Made by a program: the position numbers. From NCBI RefSeq assembly GCF_056712565.1, contig NZ_CM160072.1: a DNA stretch of 64,000 bases. One strand, written 5' to 3'. The stretch's first letter is position 1. Every line of letters begins with the position of its first letter. Shown one piece after another: positions 24,001 to 30,000 of this stretch.

Positions 24001-27000
24001 CCACCATGTCGTCGTGCTTATCCCCCATCAGACCATTAATGGCGGCGAGAAAACGGGAAATCAGTAACGCCTCTTTATTTTCAGGATCAAGCGATCTTAA
24101 GGTGTCGTAATAAGAAACCTGCTGGCTGATGATTTTTCGCACATCATGAAATTCCCTGCCAGTTAGTTGCGGTTTAGCAATAATCTCTTTCAGGATGTAC
24201 ATTTGCTTCTGGCGGTAGGCGATAAAACCGTTCACGGTTTCTAACTGGCCATGGCGCAATGAATAGTTCACCAGCCACCAGACAGGGGAGCTCAAATAAA
24301 CACGTAACAGGTTACCGTAAAACGACACAATATTTTTCTTACCGTTACGAAAGCCATCCTGAAAATGCCCAAGAAAAACGGTCGTTTTGCCGAATAAAAA
24401 TCCGGCCTGATGCTTCTTTAAATACAGCCGTTGCGCAAAACGCAGATGCTTGTAGCGCGCTCGCATGTATTTAAACTGTTTGCGCTCGTCTGTCGTCAGC
24501 TCATCGCCTTTCGCCTGTTTGCGGATTAAACGCAGTAACTCCTGACGATTAACACCATCCAGCCAGAATTTCAGGCATAACGCGTAATTATCATGGATGA
24601 TTTCGGTGGTACAACTTAGTGCGATAGTCGGCGGCAAACTGACCTGTGCATCAACAACATCATCTTCTTCAATCGCAACAAATAGACGCTCGCTCGCCTC
24701 AAGCGGGAAATATTTTCTCATCATCAGGATTTCTCTCCGGTTGAGTTATAAAGCAAGGAATGGCGCTGAAAAAATGCCTTTAAGGTCGGAATTAGCGAGA
24801 GCACCACATCCAGACATTGCCCACCGAAGTAAGCAAATGCAGCCCCCAGCACGCCAAACAGATGACAGAACATGAACAGCAATACGATGTAGCCGATTGA
24901 GGCGATGGTTTGCGCCACGAGAAAAGCGCGCTGTTTTCCCGCCATCAATAGCAATGACTCCTGTGGGAAGCCCAGCATCGAAATCACAATTGCGCCCAGC
25001 ATCACCTGAATCAGGTCATACGCTTCGAGATACTTAACGCCAAACACCAGCGAAATGAGCGGCTTGCCGACGATCAACACCGCGAGCGCCACCAGAATAC
25101 CGATTCCGCCCGCCAGTAAACCGGACTTCACGCCTAACAACCACGGTCTGGTGGTGCGTGGATCTAAACGCATCACCTCTGGATAAAAACTTTTGCCCAG
25201 TAAACCCGCTGGCGTTCCGGCGGCATCGAAGAATGTCATGGCGATTTTAAATAACCCGGCGGCAGCGGGTCCTAACACGATCCCCACCAACACTGTGCTG
25301 CACGAGTTACGCGCCGACCAGATGGAGTGGGCAATGTTGGTTGACCAGACAAAACTCCACGCGCCTTTAATGTGTCGGGCAGACTCAAACAGATTCAATT
25401 TGAAGGCGTTATGGATATTTCTGCGGCGTAATTCGCGCGCGGCAAACCACCAGTACATGGTGCCGCCAACCAGATTCGACACGTACCAGGCAATAACAAA
25501 ACCCGCAAAACCAAAGTCAAAATACCAGGCTACGACGCTCCCCGCTGCGCGCAGAAAAGGTTTCGTCGCCTGCTGTACAGCAATCAAATCAAAGCGATCT
25601 ACCGCACGCAGAATGCCGGTCGGCGTGGAGGAAGCCATTGAAGGAATGAGCGTGCAATAGAGCGCCGCCAGCCAAAAGCTTTGGTCATCCAGACCTAATG
25701 AATGGGAAAGGAATGGCAGTAAGGCAATGCCGCCGACAATCGCCACCGCGCCGCTGACGATATCCAGCGAGAAGGAAAATGAGACAACATTGCGAAATTG
25801 CTGCGGATCATTGTTGGTCAAAGCTGGCGTTCCGTACTGAACTACCAGCTGCCATGTCTGAAACTTAATAAAATCGCTGATCGACTTGGCGTACGATTGC
25901 ACAATTACCAGTACGCCAAACATGGCGGGCGTCATCCCTTTACCGGCACACGAGAGCGCCAACAGCCCCAGCAAAGCGCTCACAACATTACTGGAGCCTA
26001 ACCAGGCGCTATTGCGAATAATGGTGCGAAACGCGCCATCTGCAAACCAATGTTTGATGTTAAAAACCGCCAATTCAGCCTGACCTTATCGTTGATAGTA
26101 AAAAGTATCCCGCCAGCCTTAAGTTAAACTTCGGCGGTCAGAAACGATGGCAACCAGAGAAACCGCCTTCTGTGCCTGTTCCAGCACCTCGCTGTAAGGC
26201 GCTCTGGAATCAATCTCAAGAATTTTTGTGCCGTTATAGCCAATCGTCGACATAACACCGATTTTGTCCTGCAGCTCGGCATAGTCATGGTCAGGCTTGC
26301 GGGAGATGGCAGTATCAATATCAATCCCCAAGCGAATGATTAATTCAGGACGGTATTGCGCCATTTTTTGGTATAAACGCCGTTCACGCTGCGCCAGAAA
26401 CCTGCTGATTTTCCCGGTCGCACGTTCGACGCCAATCCCCGGTCCGTCATAATAAAAGCCCGAAATTTCAGCCTGCGGGAAGCGATCGCTGACCACCAGA
26501 ACGCCACTTTGCGCCAGTCGCTGAACCTTGCGCAGATTCGCCATTCTTCGCAGCGAGAAGCAGTACATAATCACCGCCGCCCATAGCGCCGGAGATTTGG
26601 TTTTCATGCTTTGGGTTTTCGAGGATTTGGCCGCCAGTCGCCGTTCGAGCCAGACACCAACCAACGGCAATCGTTTGATTTTGTCGCCGTCTTCGCCGGA
26701 GAGCAGCCCCAGATAGCGCCGCTCGGTTTGCCAGTGTTGTTGCAGCGATTTCACCAGGTCATTTGTCAGTGTGGATTTACCGGTGCCATCACACCCGACC
26801 ACCGCAATCAGCCCCGGAATGTAGTTGGGCTGCGGCGCGGTTGTACTCTTAACAGTTTGTGTTTGTAGTGCATCCATTCGTTTAATCATCCCCTATCCAT
26901 TTTGGTGATCAGGAAAGCGCGGCGTGAATTGCGCGTAGTGACGCTTGCAGAATTTCATCGGCTGGTTGCCGACCATCCAGTTCAAGGATCCTGGCGCCAT

Positions 27001-30000
27001 TGAATGTCAGTTGCGGCGTAACGGCGATTTTTTCCTGTAACGCTGCCAGTTGGTGGTCAGGTTTACGCGCAAACGCGGTTTGTTCATCAATGCCAAGACG
27101 AATCAACAATACAGGCAAATAAGACGCCATCCATTGGTACAGCTTCAGCTCACGCTGCCTTAACATTTTTATCCAACCGTTACCGCCCGTGGTTTTTGCC
27201 AATTGCGGGCCATCAAAGCGGAAACCCGGCACTTCAACCTGCGGGTAGCGGTCGGTGATGAGCAGATAGCCTTGCTGGTTTTTACACAACATTTTGCGAA
27301 ACTTGTACGCCCGCCAGCAGGAAAGCAGATAGATAACCAGCGCAGTAATATTGCCAGGCGGTGTTGAGGGCTTTTCGTGCACATGTGCCGCTTTACTTCG
27401 CAAATAACGCCCAAAAGGTGCGCCAATAACAGGTAGCTGTGAAATCCATTCGCCAATTCGCCCGGACGATTGCCCGAGATAAATGTGTTCTGTTGGCATT
27501 CTTGATGCCAGTTCATTTACCAGGCTTGCCGTGAGGGTCGATTTACCTGAACCATCACATCCTACAATGGCAATAACACGCACTGGCGTGGAATTAATTA
27601 TTGACATATTACGTTGATTCACGAAAAACCCGGCAGCAAATAATGTATTGAATATTACGTGGTCCGTGCTCAGAATATCCGTTCAACCTTATTGTGACAA
27701 TGGTTAATTGTGACATTGACCTGAATTACGCTTTCATCAAAAACATATTAACCAAATAAATATTTTGGATGGATATTTAAATTTAAGGATATATTCATGC
27801 AGTCAATAATACCTCCATTAATTGCCGTTATTGGTAGCGATGGTTCAGGCAAGTCAACGGTGTGTGAACATCTTATTACCGTTGTCGAAAAATATGGTGC
27901 TGCCGAAAGGGTTCATTTAGGAAAACAGGCCGGAAATGTCGGTCGTGCAGTGACAAAATTACCGTTGATGGGAAAATCCTTACATAAAACAATTGAACGA
28001 AATCAGGTAAAAACAGCAAAAAAATTGCCTGGACCAGTTCCGGCGCTGGTAATTACAGCGTTTGTCGCCCGTCGCTTACTGCGCTTTCGTCATATGCTTG
28101 CCTGTCGTCGTCGCGGGTTAATTGTTTTAACCGACCGTTATCCGCAGGACCAGATTCCTGGCGCTTATGATGGTACGGTGTTTCCGCCTAACGTTGAAGG
28201 TGGTCGTTTTGTCTCATGGCTGGCAAGTCAGGAACGTAAAGCATTTCACTGGATGGCGAGCCACAAGCCCGATCTGGTCATCAAACTCAATGTTGACCTT
28301 GAAGTTGCCTGCGCGCGTAAACCCGACCATAAACGGGAATCGCTGGCGAGGAAGATTGCCATAACGCCACAGTTAACCTTTGGTGGTGCACAACTGGTTG
28401 ATATCGACGCCAATCAGCCACTGGAAAAGGTGCTGGTTGATGCAGAAAAAGCGATTACGGATTTTATGACCGCGCGTGGTTATCACTAGTGAAAAATGGA
28501 AATGCCCGATCGCCAGGACCGGGCATTTTCAGGAAGGTTAAATCAACTGCAATGCTATCCAGTACAACCCACCAGAAAGAAAAATCGCCGCCGGTAAAGT
28601 AAATACCCACGCCATCAGGATGCTGGTTACCGTTTTACGCTGTAACCCACCGCCGTCCACCACCATCGTTCCTGCTACGGCAGATGAGAGTACGTGTGTT
28701 GTGGAGACGGGCATCCCAATATAACTGGCAAGGCCGATAGACACTGCCGCCGTCATTTGTGCCGCCATGCCTTGCGCATACGTCATGCCGCGCTTACCAA
28801 TCTTCTCACCGATGGTCATCGCTACACGACGCCAGCCAATCATGGTGCCGATGCCGAGCGCCAGTGCTACCGCCATGATGATCCATACCGGTGCGTACTC
28901 AATGGTGCTTAACATATCGCTGCGCAGTTTTTTCAGCAGGTTCTGGTCTTCTTTACTGACGCCTGGCAGTTTCGCCAGCTTCGCGGAGGTATCAGAGATG
29001 CACAGCATAATGCGGCGCAGCTGGCTGCGCTGACTCACGCTTAACGGCTCGTAACTTTCCATATTGCCTGGCAGCATCGTTTTAACGCGCGCAATCGCAT
29101 CAAAGGTATTTGCCGGATGACAGTGAAACTCCGTCACTTGCGCGCCATCAGTCGATGCCGCAGGCAATGGAGGTTCCATCGTAATCAACTTCTGCGGCAG
29201 TTCAGGATGCTGTTGCAGGTAGTGTTCGAAGTTGGTGACGGCATCGCGGGTACGGGTAATTTCATAGCCGGACGCATTCATATTGACGACAAACCCGGCG
29301 GGAGCAATCCCCACCAGCACCAGCATCACCAGACCAATTCCTTTCTGCCCGTCGTTCGCGCCGTGCGAAAACGCCACGCCCGCAGCGGAAACAATGAGGG
29401 CAATACGCGTCCAGAATGGCGGCTTACGTTTGCCTTTTTTCTTTTTGCGATCTTCAGGAATACGATGAATACGGTCACGCTTTTTCGTCCCACTCCAGAA
29501 ACGGCGTAGCAGAAAAATTAGCCCCCCCGCAATCACCAGCCCCACGATGGGAGAGACAATGAGTGAAGAGAAAATCTTGGTGACTTCGCGCAGGTTTAAC
29601 GCATCCATCACCGACGAGCCGGTTAACAGCGCGTTGGTTAAACCAATGCCGATAATCGCACCAATCAAAGTGTGCGAACTGGAGGCCGGTAAACCAAAGA
29701 ACCACGTTCCCAGGTTCCAGATAATCGCCGCCAGCAGCATGGAAAAGACCATCGCCAGACCGTGAGTTGACCCCATATTCAGCAACAAATCGGTTGGCAA
29801 CATATGGACGATGGCATAGGCAACGCTAAGCCCGCCAAGCAATACGCCAAAAAAGTTAAAAAATGCCGCCATGACCACAGCAAGCTGTGGTTGCATGGCA
29901 CGGGTATAAATAACGGTTGCCACCGCATTCGCCGTGTCATGAAAACCATTGATTGCTTCATAGAACAACACAAATGCCAGAGCAAGTAATAACAAAAGCC

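Follow-up and report, generated by a model that had tools for sequence, protein, structure and literature searches.

Three thymidylate kinase-like paralogs, YghR, YghS and YghT, as candidate head-group kinases of the Escherichia coli ceramide gene cluster

The genes yghR, yghS and yghT encode three paralogous P-loop kinases (collectively, YghRST) and lie in a 64,000-nucleotide stretch of DNA from the NCBI RefSeq assembly GCF_056712565.1 (contig NZ_CM160072.1; hereafter, the window), where they form part of an intact gene cluster for the synthesis and export of ceramide. Phosphorylation of the lipid head group appears to be the best-supported function of these proteins: in our estimate, there is roughly an even chance that they install phosphate on ceramide or ceramide-1-phosphate, within the head-group and export half of the cluster. 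In the open-access literature, only generic labels, e.g., “ATP-binding protein” or “NTP hydrolase domain”, were found for the three genes, with no function assigned, and no paper linked them, or the gene for a CHAD-like protein described below, to sphingolipid clusters.

The similarity among YghR, YghS and YghT far exceeds chance. Their end-to-end alignment contains 54 invariant columns, and pairwise BLASTP comparisons gave 43% identity for YghR/YghS (E 3e-62), 37% for YghS/YghT (E 4e-54) and 34% for YghR/YghT (E 1e-47). Full-length alignment and E-values of 1e-47 or below thus establish the paralogy proposed in an earlier note on this DNA, and all three open reading frames (ORFs) were recovered where that note had placed them, under the gene names used by RefSeq. 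The motif blocks it listed are present in the same order, i.e., G-[CS]-D-G-[ST]-G-K-S-T (Walker A), D-R-[YF]-P-Q, [RK]-L-[GN]-[IV]-D and R-K-P-D-H, save that the last of these, given there as A-R-K-P-D-H, reads S-R-K-P-D-H in YghR. Its account of gene orientation was likewise borne out: on the minus strand, yghS and yghR are co-directional with yghQ and the other export genes, and an AT-rich spacer of 174 bp separates them from the divergent yghT. The yghR ORF extends beyond its RefSeq start to a first ATG at 26889 (26119-26889, 256 aa). Each of the three proteins has a computed isoelectric point of about 9.8, and a transmembrane scan of them found no hydrophobic segment above threshold.

Judging from sequence profiles and a structure model, YghRST form their own branch of the thymidylate kinase (TMPK) superfamily, being neither deoxythymidine monophosphate (dTMP) kinases nor transporter ATPases. 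The PGAP labels in RefSeq are “dTMP kinase” and “nucleoside/nucleotide kinase family protein” (yghS, yghT); the scores against the dTMP kinase model TIGR00041 are 32.8, 25.1 and 25.4 bits vs a cut-off of 83.25, the best E-value with the Pfam model Thymidylate_kin (PF02223) is 0.0095, and the remaining library-model matches comprise the P-loop only. The AF2 model of YghS, the paralog chosen for structure prediction, has a pLDDT (predicted local distance difference test) of 92 and a predicted P-loop kinase core with a five-stranded parallel sheet, similar to that of solved TMPKs. Its structure matches include TMPKs and deoxynucleoside kinases (dNKs), as well as adenylate, nicotinamide-riboside and dephospho-CoA kinases, with which the Foldseek results concur; neither an ABC (ATP-binding cassette) ATPase nor LpxK was among the top 60. 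The LSGGQ signature is absent from YghR, YghS and YghT, and library scans returned no ABC match above noise. The earlier note had favored a small-molecule-kinase fold over an ABC one, naming ABC signature motifs beforehand as the finding that would speak against it; with a TMPK/dNK fold, no signature motif and matches at the P-loop level only, the identity of an ABC transporter ATPase was rejected.

The TMPK-type features present in the family include the GxDG[ST]GKST P-loop, which is the same as in some TMPKs, the DR[YF]PQ clamp and the lid arginine in R-K-P-D-H. A profile of 68 family sequences matched TMPKs in the PDB at E 2e-11 and ST1543 at E 5.7e-6. The alignments with TMPKs end at DRY (profile position 127), restart at position 168 and run to the C-terminus; the segment between DRY and the lid is family-specific (PQ..G..DGP..E..Y) and never aligns to TMPKs, and the region corresponding to their dTMP-binding segment after DRY is not conserved in YghRST. 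Overall, YghRST share with Tmk (TIGR00041/PF02223) the GxDGxGK[ST]T P-loop, the DR[YF] clamp and the lid arginine following strand 4; in contrast to Tmk, they reach one third of the cut-off score, possess about 40 extra residues, carry PQ..G..DGP in place of the dTMP-binding stretch, and form a conserved triad encoded within a lipid cluster.

To compare the paralogs across taxa, 211 orthologs were sorted into R, S and T groups by best match, yielding 70-75 sequences per group (75 in R). The Walker A motif GxDG[ST]GKST, DR[YF]PQ, E157 and the lid R-K-P-D-H are kept in at least 90% of the sequences of each group (in the R group, as GcDGTGKST, DRyPQ and RKPDH). The three motifs are conserved in the broader family, too. 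At the same time, each group has invariant residues of its own, chiefly after strand 2, which is the acceptor side of TMPK. Such a combination of shared catalytic motifs with group-specific residues suggests long-standing subfunctionalization and not decay; hence, the best explanation of the sequence patterns seems to be that YghR, YghS and YghT are three non-redundant, catalytically intact and anciently diverged phosphotransferases that depend on ATP. In-frame S-R fusions of 496 and 510 aa, with the domains joined by a short Pro/Ala-rich linker, occur in two Candidatus Nitrotoga genomes (L078:9179-10711 and L082:9209-10699); the metagenomic protein P0121 is likewise an S-R fusion, and P0122 combines two kinase domains from other clades of the family. 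The genes yghS and yghR overlap by 4 nt in Carnimonas and in a further locus (L006). From these arrangements, YghS and YghR probably work as a heteromer, YghT having a separate step or role.

A complete ceramide cluster surrounds the triad in the window. It spans about 13 kb, is intact, and comprises yghO/bCerS, aasR, cerR, acpR, spt, lptG2, lptF2, a ytfJ-like gene, a gene for a 278-aa protein, yghQ, yghR, yghS and yghT; the five ceramide genes (spt, acpR, aasR, cerR and bCerS) fit within 12 kb. In E. coli B, AasR, AcpR and Spt were documented to produce 3-oxo-sphinganine, and yghO and the epimerase-like gene were equated with the N-acyltransferase and the reductase of Caulobacter (PMC9386255, Padilla-Gomez et al.); publications on the E. 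coli cluster are confined to these five genes (PMC9386255). This activity, along with the equivalence of yghO and the epimerase gene, identifies the locus as a complete ceramide cluster. The surmise of the earlier note that the triad adjoins a lipid synthesis and export locus can thus be specified as a complete ceramide (sphingolipid) cluster with which it co-occurs across Proteobacteria. Neither the annotation nor the family models revealed in the E. coli cluster a glycosyltransferase, a CDP-alcohol transferase, or a LicD- or Stealth-type enzyme. Without a glycosyltransferase or a CDP-alcohol transferase in the cluster, the three kinases and the CHAD-like protein are left as its sole candidates for building a head group.

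The association of the triad with ceramide genes extends far beyond E. coli. The locus scan was carried out with one genome per species, and the 80 loci considered here are the best 80 of 248 confirmed matches to the E. coli proteins; they were compared with all thirteen proteins of the E. coli cluster by tblastn, and 52 of them are fully flanked, i.e., have at least 7 kb on both sides. The hosts represent alpha-, beta-, gamma- and deltaproteobacteria, including Enterobacterales (Serratia, Pantoea, Erwinia, Hafnia, Citrobacter amalonaticus, Rahnella, Sodalis, Rosenbergiella), Carnimonas, Rhodanobacteraceae (Dyella, Rhodanobacter, Luteibacter), Betaproteobacteria (Methylotenera, Nitrotoga, Sulfuritalea, Gallionellaceae), Sphingomonadales and one Myxococcales genome. 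Three paralogs are present in 59 loci, two in 12 and four in 4; yghS is followed by yghR on the same strand in 74 of the 75 loci holding both, and, of the 63 loci with a T copy, 58 show the order T(-) S(+) R(+). Spt is encoded within 10 kb in 43 of the 52 fully flanked loci, from four proteobacterial classes, together with AcpR and the reductase in those 43 and with AasR as well in 42. YghQ was detected in 45 of the fully flanked loci (63 of all 80) and the 278-aa CHAD-like gene in 42 of them, and the kinase genes adjoin the flippase gene in most loci. The YtfJ-like gene is found in 38 of the 80 loci, all titled Enterobacterales save one (L044, Martelella alba), and LptF2G2 is not encoded within 10 kb in 45 of the 80. 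The order of the gene blocks is shuffled among the taxa and the gene set is kept; the association of the triad with ceramide genes is therefore upheld by selection and is not one inherited arrangement.

Accessory genes of these loci, recognized by clustering all their ORFs and scanning representatives against NCBIfam, point to phosphate chemistry on a lipid. An LpxE-like PAP2 phosphatase (16 loci) and an LmtA-like lipid-A 1-phosphate O-methyltransferase (11 loci) occur in distant clusters, and a second PAP2 protein, like undecaprenyl-diphosphatase/PgpB, in 7 loci; enzymes removing or methylating a lipid phosphate in the vicinity of the triad argue that its product carries phosphate. In 21 loci of Enterobacterales and Carnimonas, e.g., L002:2279-2644 and L004:12404-12730, the sphingolipid cluster has at its edge a gene for a DgkA-type small membrane kinase (Pfam DAGK_prokar), which is absent from the E. 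coli window. Ceramide is an in vitro substrate of E. coli DgkA, and the DgkA-type kinase is a candidate for the first phosphorylation of ceramide. An OlsC/LpxO-like acyl 2-hydroxylase was found in 25 loci. No PPX, SixA, Pst or NUDIX genes were found in the annotated window or among the annotated recurrent gene clusters of the 80 loci. Examples of the LmtA-, LpxE- and PgpB-like genes in distant triad loci are L075:6440-7183, L087:6807-7370, L058:6346-7050 and related ones; some of the distant loci also encode a DUF2147-like periplasmic protein and a NodT-type outer-membrane lipoprotein, which were identified by eye and had no library match.

The 278-aa neighbor, annotated as a hypothetical protein, has an all-helical predicted fold resembling CHAD, with conserved His, Arg and Lys residues. 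CHAD domains are modules that bind inorganic polyphosphate (bioRxiv 10.1101/567040; PMC6537752). Going by its predicted fold, the 278-aa protein can be regarded as a candidate (oligo)phosphate-binding partner of the kinases. Its interpretation as a free-standing counterpart of the NTP_transf_5-like domain of the fused relatives (see below) was rejected (hhalign probability 0.6%). Two tandem copies of the gene are present in Luteibacter (L054, L059), and fused, double-length proteins of this type (561-564 aa) occur in metagenomes (P0271-P0276).

In E. coli, the cluster is widespread. The stretch 18000-30100 of the window (12.1 kb) is 100% identical to E. coli S88, ATCC 11775, NU14 and others. 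Of 5426 complete E. coli genomes, 4071 (about 75%), among them extraintestinal pathogenic E. coli such as S88, carry 80% or more of this segment, which runs from aasR to pitB. The triad itself is at least 80% covered in 4604 of the 5426 genomes, and 683 have no yghRST match. K-12 MG1655 keeps a mere remnant of the ceramide cluster (L090, NC_000913.3 3129043-3132408): IS5 (insH9) is flanked by truncated copies of yghO and yghQ, and aasR, cerR, acpR, spt, lptG2, lptF2, the ytfJ-like gene and the 278-aa gene are missing. K-12 YghQ has 355 aa vs 449 aa in the window, and K-12 YghO has a different N-terminus. The loss of its pathway in the IS5-linked deletion accounts for the orphaned appearance of the triad in K-12 and for its lack of a phenotype there. 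In at least one E. coli genome (H20, NZ_CP155555.1 876549-876720), only the last 172 nt of yghT are left, beside gspL and annotated as “thymidylate kinase”, so a further deletion variant of the region exists.

Paralogy, fold, motif conservation, cluster membership, synteny, the fusions and the CHAD-like fold are established by the data above; the acceptor substrate, the number and linkage of the phosphates, the heteromer and the order of the steps we infer as follows. YghT and a YghS-YghR heteromer would phosphorylate ceramide on the cytoplasmic face of the inner membrane, possibly up to a di- or oligophosphate; the CHAD-like protein would bind or hold the (oligo)phosphate head group, flipping of the completed lipid would fall to YghQ, and its transport towards the outer membrane to LptF2G2 and the periplasmic YtfJ-like protein. 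Since no glycosyltransferase or CDP-alcohol transferase is encoded in the cluster, the kinases and the CHAD-like protein are the only candidates for forming a head group whose size or charge would call for a MOP flippase and an Lpt-type exporter. TMPK chemistry adds phosphate onto phosphate, hence the phosphates of the product could be joined by phosphoanhydride bonds into a di- or oligophosphate. Carried further, this would yield an undescribed lipid class, i.e., ceramide with a phosphoanhydride di-, tri- or oligophosphate head group, or a lipid-anchored short polyphosphate, which we regard as unlikely at present. In such a scheme, DgkA or one of the paralogs would make ceramide-1-phosphate, and the TMPK-like enzymes would extend it phosphate by phosphate, in reactions of the nucleoside monophosphate-to-diphosphate type. 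The YghS-YghR heteromer would act like the polyphosphate kinase (PPK) PPK3, with the CHAD-like protein holding the chain; after flipping by YghQ, the product would be inserted into the outer membrane by LptF2G2, as a highly anionic partner of, or substitute for, lipid A. In other taxa, the LpxE-like phosphatases and the LmtA-like methyltransferase may trim or cap the product.

By analogy, the closest precedent for YghRST seems to be PPK3 of Sulfolobus acidocaldarius (Saci_2019/Saci_2020, PMC12995831). The two systems are alike in their side-by-side TMPK-fold paralogs misannotated as dTMP kinases, in the basic character of the proteins, and possibly in a CHAD protein encoded in the same cluster (in E. 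coli, the 278-aa candidate with the CHAD-like predicted fold) and in forming a heteromer, as the natural S-R fusions suggest for YghS-YghR. They differ in the number of paralogs (three vs two) and in the DRX arginine, which the regulatory subunit of PPK3 has lost (PMC12995831), as well as in genomic context: YghRST are encoded next to genes for ceramide synthesis, for a MOP flippase and for export of the Lpt type, with no PPX, SixA or Pst among them. As a functional analogy, the lipid A 4'-kinase LpxK can be named, a P-loop kinase whose lipid is phosphorylated at the cytoplasmic face before flipping and Lpt export. LpxK has an N-terminal membrane helix, whereas YghRST have none, and the family-model scans detected no sequence similarity of YghRST to it.

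The cluster CC_1152-CC_1168 of Caulobacter crescentus, which includes CpgABC and LptC2F2G2 (PMC11324152, PMC10331486), possesses the same five ceramide genes and unites with them a second LptF/LptG pair and a MOP-type flippase (CC_1166). Its product is an anionic phosphorylated ceramide bound for the outer membrane (PMC11324152, PMC10331486), and the second LptF/LptG pair and the flippase are proposed exporters of phosphosphingolipids (PMC11324152). The head-group enzymes differ: the Caulobacter cluster encodes CpgB (DAGK-type), a Tam41-like protein, a CDP-alcohol transferase and nucleotidyltransferases. These have no E. coli counterparts; what the E. coli cluster encodes instead is the TMPK-like triad together with the CHAD-like protein. 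Homology to CpgB was rejected, as YghRST are P-loop proteins with no DAGK_cat match and CpgB is of the DAGK type with a GGDG motif.

The kinase family is broader than the triad. A profile search of 1.84 billion representative proteins recovered 2175 members at E of 0.001 or below, and a neighbor-joining tree divides them into stand-alone proteins of about 230-300 aa, with separate R, S and T clades, and larger ones (about 500 aa) whose N-terminal domain is NTP_transf_5-like. In this sister family (P0163-P0270), the kinase and the NTP_transf_5-like domain are sometimes joined by a MOP flippase or a GT4 domain: the distant relative P0219 unites a MOP flippase, an NTP_transf_5 domain and a kinase domain in a single protein, and in another relative a GT4 glycosyltransferase is fused to the kinase domain. 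The gene for one fused member, P0168 (contigs L008:5721-12048 and L009), directly follows a flippase gene in a Wzx/Wzy polysaccharide locus devoid of spt; L008 carries sulfotransferase and ATP sulfurylase genes, too. The presence of the sister family in Wzx/Wzy loci suggests that the same type of enzyme modifies polysaccharide precursors.

Several observations weigh against ceramide phosphorylation by YghRST. The presence of the NTP_transf_5-fused sister group in Wzx/Wzy loci without spt implies that the family is not ceramide-specific, and the co-occurrence figures are biased to close relatives since the best 80 matches were taken. The proteins have no membrane segment, so their access to a lipid is an assumption. 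CpgB, the only characterized bacterial ceramide kinase, is of the DAGK type and unrelated to YghRST (PMC10331486), and the published description of the Caulobacter cluster lists no YghRST homolog (PMC11324152). For E. coli B, the open-access papers searched stop at 3-oxo-sphinganine and dihydroceramide, short of the final lipid or YghRST. As to the PPK3 precedent, the DRX arginine is kept in all three paralogs, unlike in the PPK3 regulatory subunit, and by the E-values given above the family is no nearer in sequence to ST1543 than to ordinary TMPKs. The CHAD assignment of the 278-aa protein rests on the fold and one UniRef name; at the sequence level, there was no NCBIfam, PDB-sequence or Pfam match (one member gave E 0.089).

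Among the other explanations, a role of YghRST as soluble small-molecule or nucleotide kinases, making or recycling an activated head-group donor which another enzyme transfers to ceramide, appears distinctly unlikely. It would accord with the habits of the TMPK/dNK/adenylate kinase fold family, which acts on soluble nucleotides, with the lack of membrane segments, and with the many relatives fused to a nucleotidyltransferase-like domain, since a kinase and a nucleotidyltransferase make up the classic head-group-activation pair. Still, the E. coli cluster has no transferase able to use such a donor, the acceptor-site segment of TMPKs is replaced by the PQ..G..DGP loop, and a single donor would hardly explain three separately conserved paralogs. 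Less credible again is a PPK3-like polyphosphate kinase or polyphosphate-dependent nucleotide kinase, in which YghS/YghR with YghT would make or consume free polyphosphate, bound by the CHAD-like protein with no covalent link to lipid, thereby supplying phosphate or energy to the pathway or decorating the envelope. Paired TMPK-like genes next to a CHAD gene did turn out to encode a polyphosphate kinase (PMC12995831), and the CHAD-like fold of the neighbor and the basic nature of YghRST fit this precedent. Against it stand the lack of PPX, SixA, Pst and NUDIX, the markers of PPK3 and PPK1 neighborhoods, in the E. coli locus and the annotated clusters; the identity of the conserved partners (ceramide synthesis genes, a MOP flippase and lipid-phosphate-modifying enzymes); and the catalytic arginine, which is retained in all three paralogs and not in the PPK3 regulatory subunit. 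Moreover, E. coli already has PPK1.

It is very unlikely that YghRST are regulatory or energizing NTPases gating or powering YghQ or LptF2G2, neither of which has an ATPase in the cluster. The missing LptB and LptC partners of LptF2G2, the natural flippase-nucleotidyltransferase-kinase fusion P0219, and the adjacency of kinase and flippase genes in most loci could be read this way, but the fold is not of the ABC type and shows no signature motif, the triad dispenses with a nearby LptF2G2 in the 45 loci mentioned above, and the conserved DRX clamp and lid arginine belong to enzymes transferring phosphate to an acceptor rather than to simple hydrolases; nor are MOP flippases known to use ATP. 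That YghRST are genuine dTMP or nucleotide kinases located beside a lipid locus by chance is scarcely credible. The PGAP names and a P-loop identical to that of some TMPKs are consistent with it; on the other hand, TIGR00041 scores of 25-33 bits vs a cut-off of 83, Thymidylate_kin E-values of at least 0.0095 and the lack of conservation in the acceptor-site region are not, and synteny with ceramide genes across four proteobacterial classes despite rearrangement excludes chance. The essential tmk of E. coli is, furthermore, encoded elsewhere.

Three unexplained y-genes of E. coli, the best-studied bacterium, are thus assigned to a defined pathway and given a testable job, and the triad represents a new, widely distributed branch of the TMPK superfamily with a proposed new role and partnership, from which an undescribed lipid class may plausibly follow. 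If YghRST do produce a phosphorylated or oligophosphorylated ceramide for export by the second Lpt system, it would be a new outer-membrane lipid of enteric bacteria, with consequences for envelope charge, sensitivity to polymyxin and antimicrobial peptides, and host recognition. Along with CpgB of Caulobacter, two independent ways of phosphorylating the ceramide head group would then be known, and YghRST would be the second case, after PPK3, of thymidylate kinases recruited to phosphoanhydride chemistry.

The features of the cluster in the window are collected in Table 1. Its strand layout places yghO on the minus strand, aasR, cerR, acpR and spt on the plus strand, lptG2 through yghS on the minus strand and yghT on the plus strand, followed by pitB. 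An NCBIfam scan of YghO gave no match. The lptF2/lptG2 pair scores above the equivalog cut-offs, and genes for an LptB ATPase and for LptC are missing from the cluster. LptF2G2 may share the housekeeping LptB or else work in another way, and the same question arises for LptF2G2 of Caulobacter.

Table 1. Coordinates of the ceramide cluster, the kinase triad and adjoining features in the window
Feature	Coordinates	Strand	Description	Basis or remark
yghO (aca/bCerS)	15516..16658	-	N-acyltransferase, bacterial ceramide synthase	RefSeq; equated with Caulobacter CC_1154 in PMC9386255
aasR	17029..18753	+	Acyl-ACP (acyl carrier protein) synthetase for AcpR; RefSeq fatty acyl-AMP ligase	Annotation and PMC9386255
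epi/cerR	18750..19664	+	NAD-dependent reductase of the 3-oxo intermediate; RefSeq epimerase/dehydratase family	Annotation and PMC9386255
acpR	19696..19944	+	Specialized acyl carrier protein	Annotation and PMC9386255
spt	19944..21116	+		Annotation; E. coli B ortholog active with acyl-AcpR (PMC9386255)
lptG2	21151..22230	-	Second LptG	TIGR04408, 298.8 bits; start overlaps lptF2 end by 4 nt
lptF2	22227..23297	-	Second lipopolysaccharide-export permease LptF	TIGR04407, 317.7 bits
ytfJ-like gene	23328..23888	-	YtfJ-family periplasmic protein, signal peptide	TIGR01626, 213.9 bits vs cut-off 151
278-aa gene	23888..24724	-	“Hypothetical protein”, CHAD-like fold	Predicted fold
yghQ	24724..26073	-	MOP-family, Wzx-like flippase	NCBIfam MOP flippase match; directly downstream of yghR
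yghR	26119..26877	-	P-loop kinase, thymidylate-kinase superfamily; 252 aa	RefSeq ATG at 26877
yghS	26909..27622	-	Paralog chosen for the structure model; 237 aa	GTG start
yghS/yghT spacer	27623..27796	.	Divergent spacer	AT-rich
yghT	27797..28489	+	230 aa	Divergent from yghS-yghR
Hairpin	28500..28528	.	12-bp stem, terminator-like	Between convergent yghT and pitB

The spacer between yghS and yghT presumably holds both promoters. It contains a direct repeat, TTGTGACA(N10)TTGTGACA, and one weak promoter-like site on the minus strand (27700-27672), and the GC content of the segment 27500-27999 is 0.386. Promoter-like and terminator-like counts were about the same as in shuffled sequence, with the yghT/pitB hairpin as the notable exception. 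In K-12, a FlhDC peak at this spacer was found by SELEX (systematic evolution of ligands by exponential enrichment; PMC9962212), and overexpression of SlyA raised yghS 3.1-fold (PMC5797941). These reports, together with the AT-rich spacer, hint that the triad locus may be regulated or silenced, the AT-richness suggesting H-NS as a conceivable candidate.

Elsewhere in the window, three Rfam matches exceeded the gathering score: the small RNA (sRNA) C0719 between glcA and glcB (7830-8051, 291 bits), the REP-derived naRNA4 on both strands between yghU and hybG (33300-33376), and the sRNA ES173 downstream of yghB and before yqhC (49967-50030).

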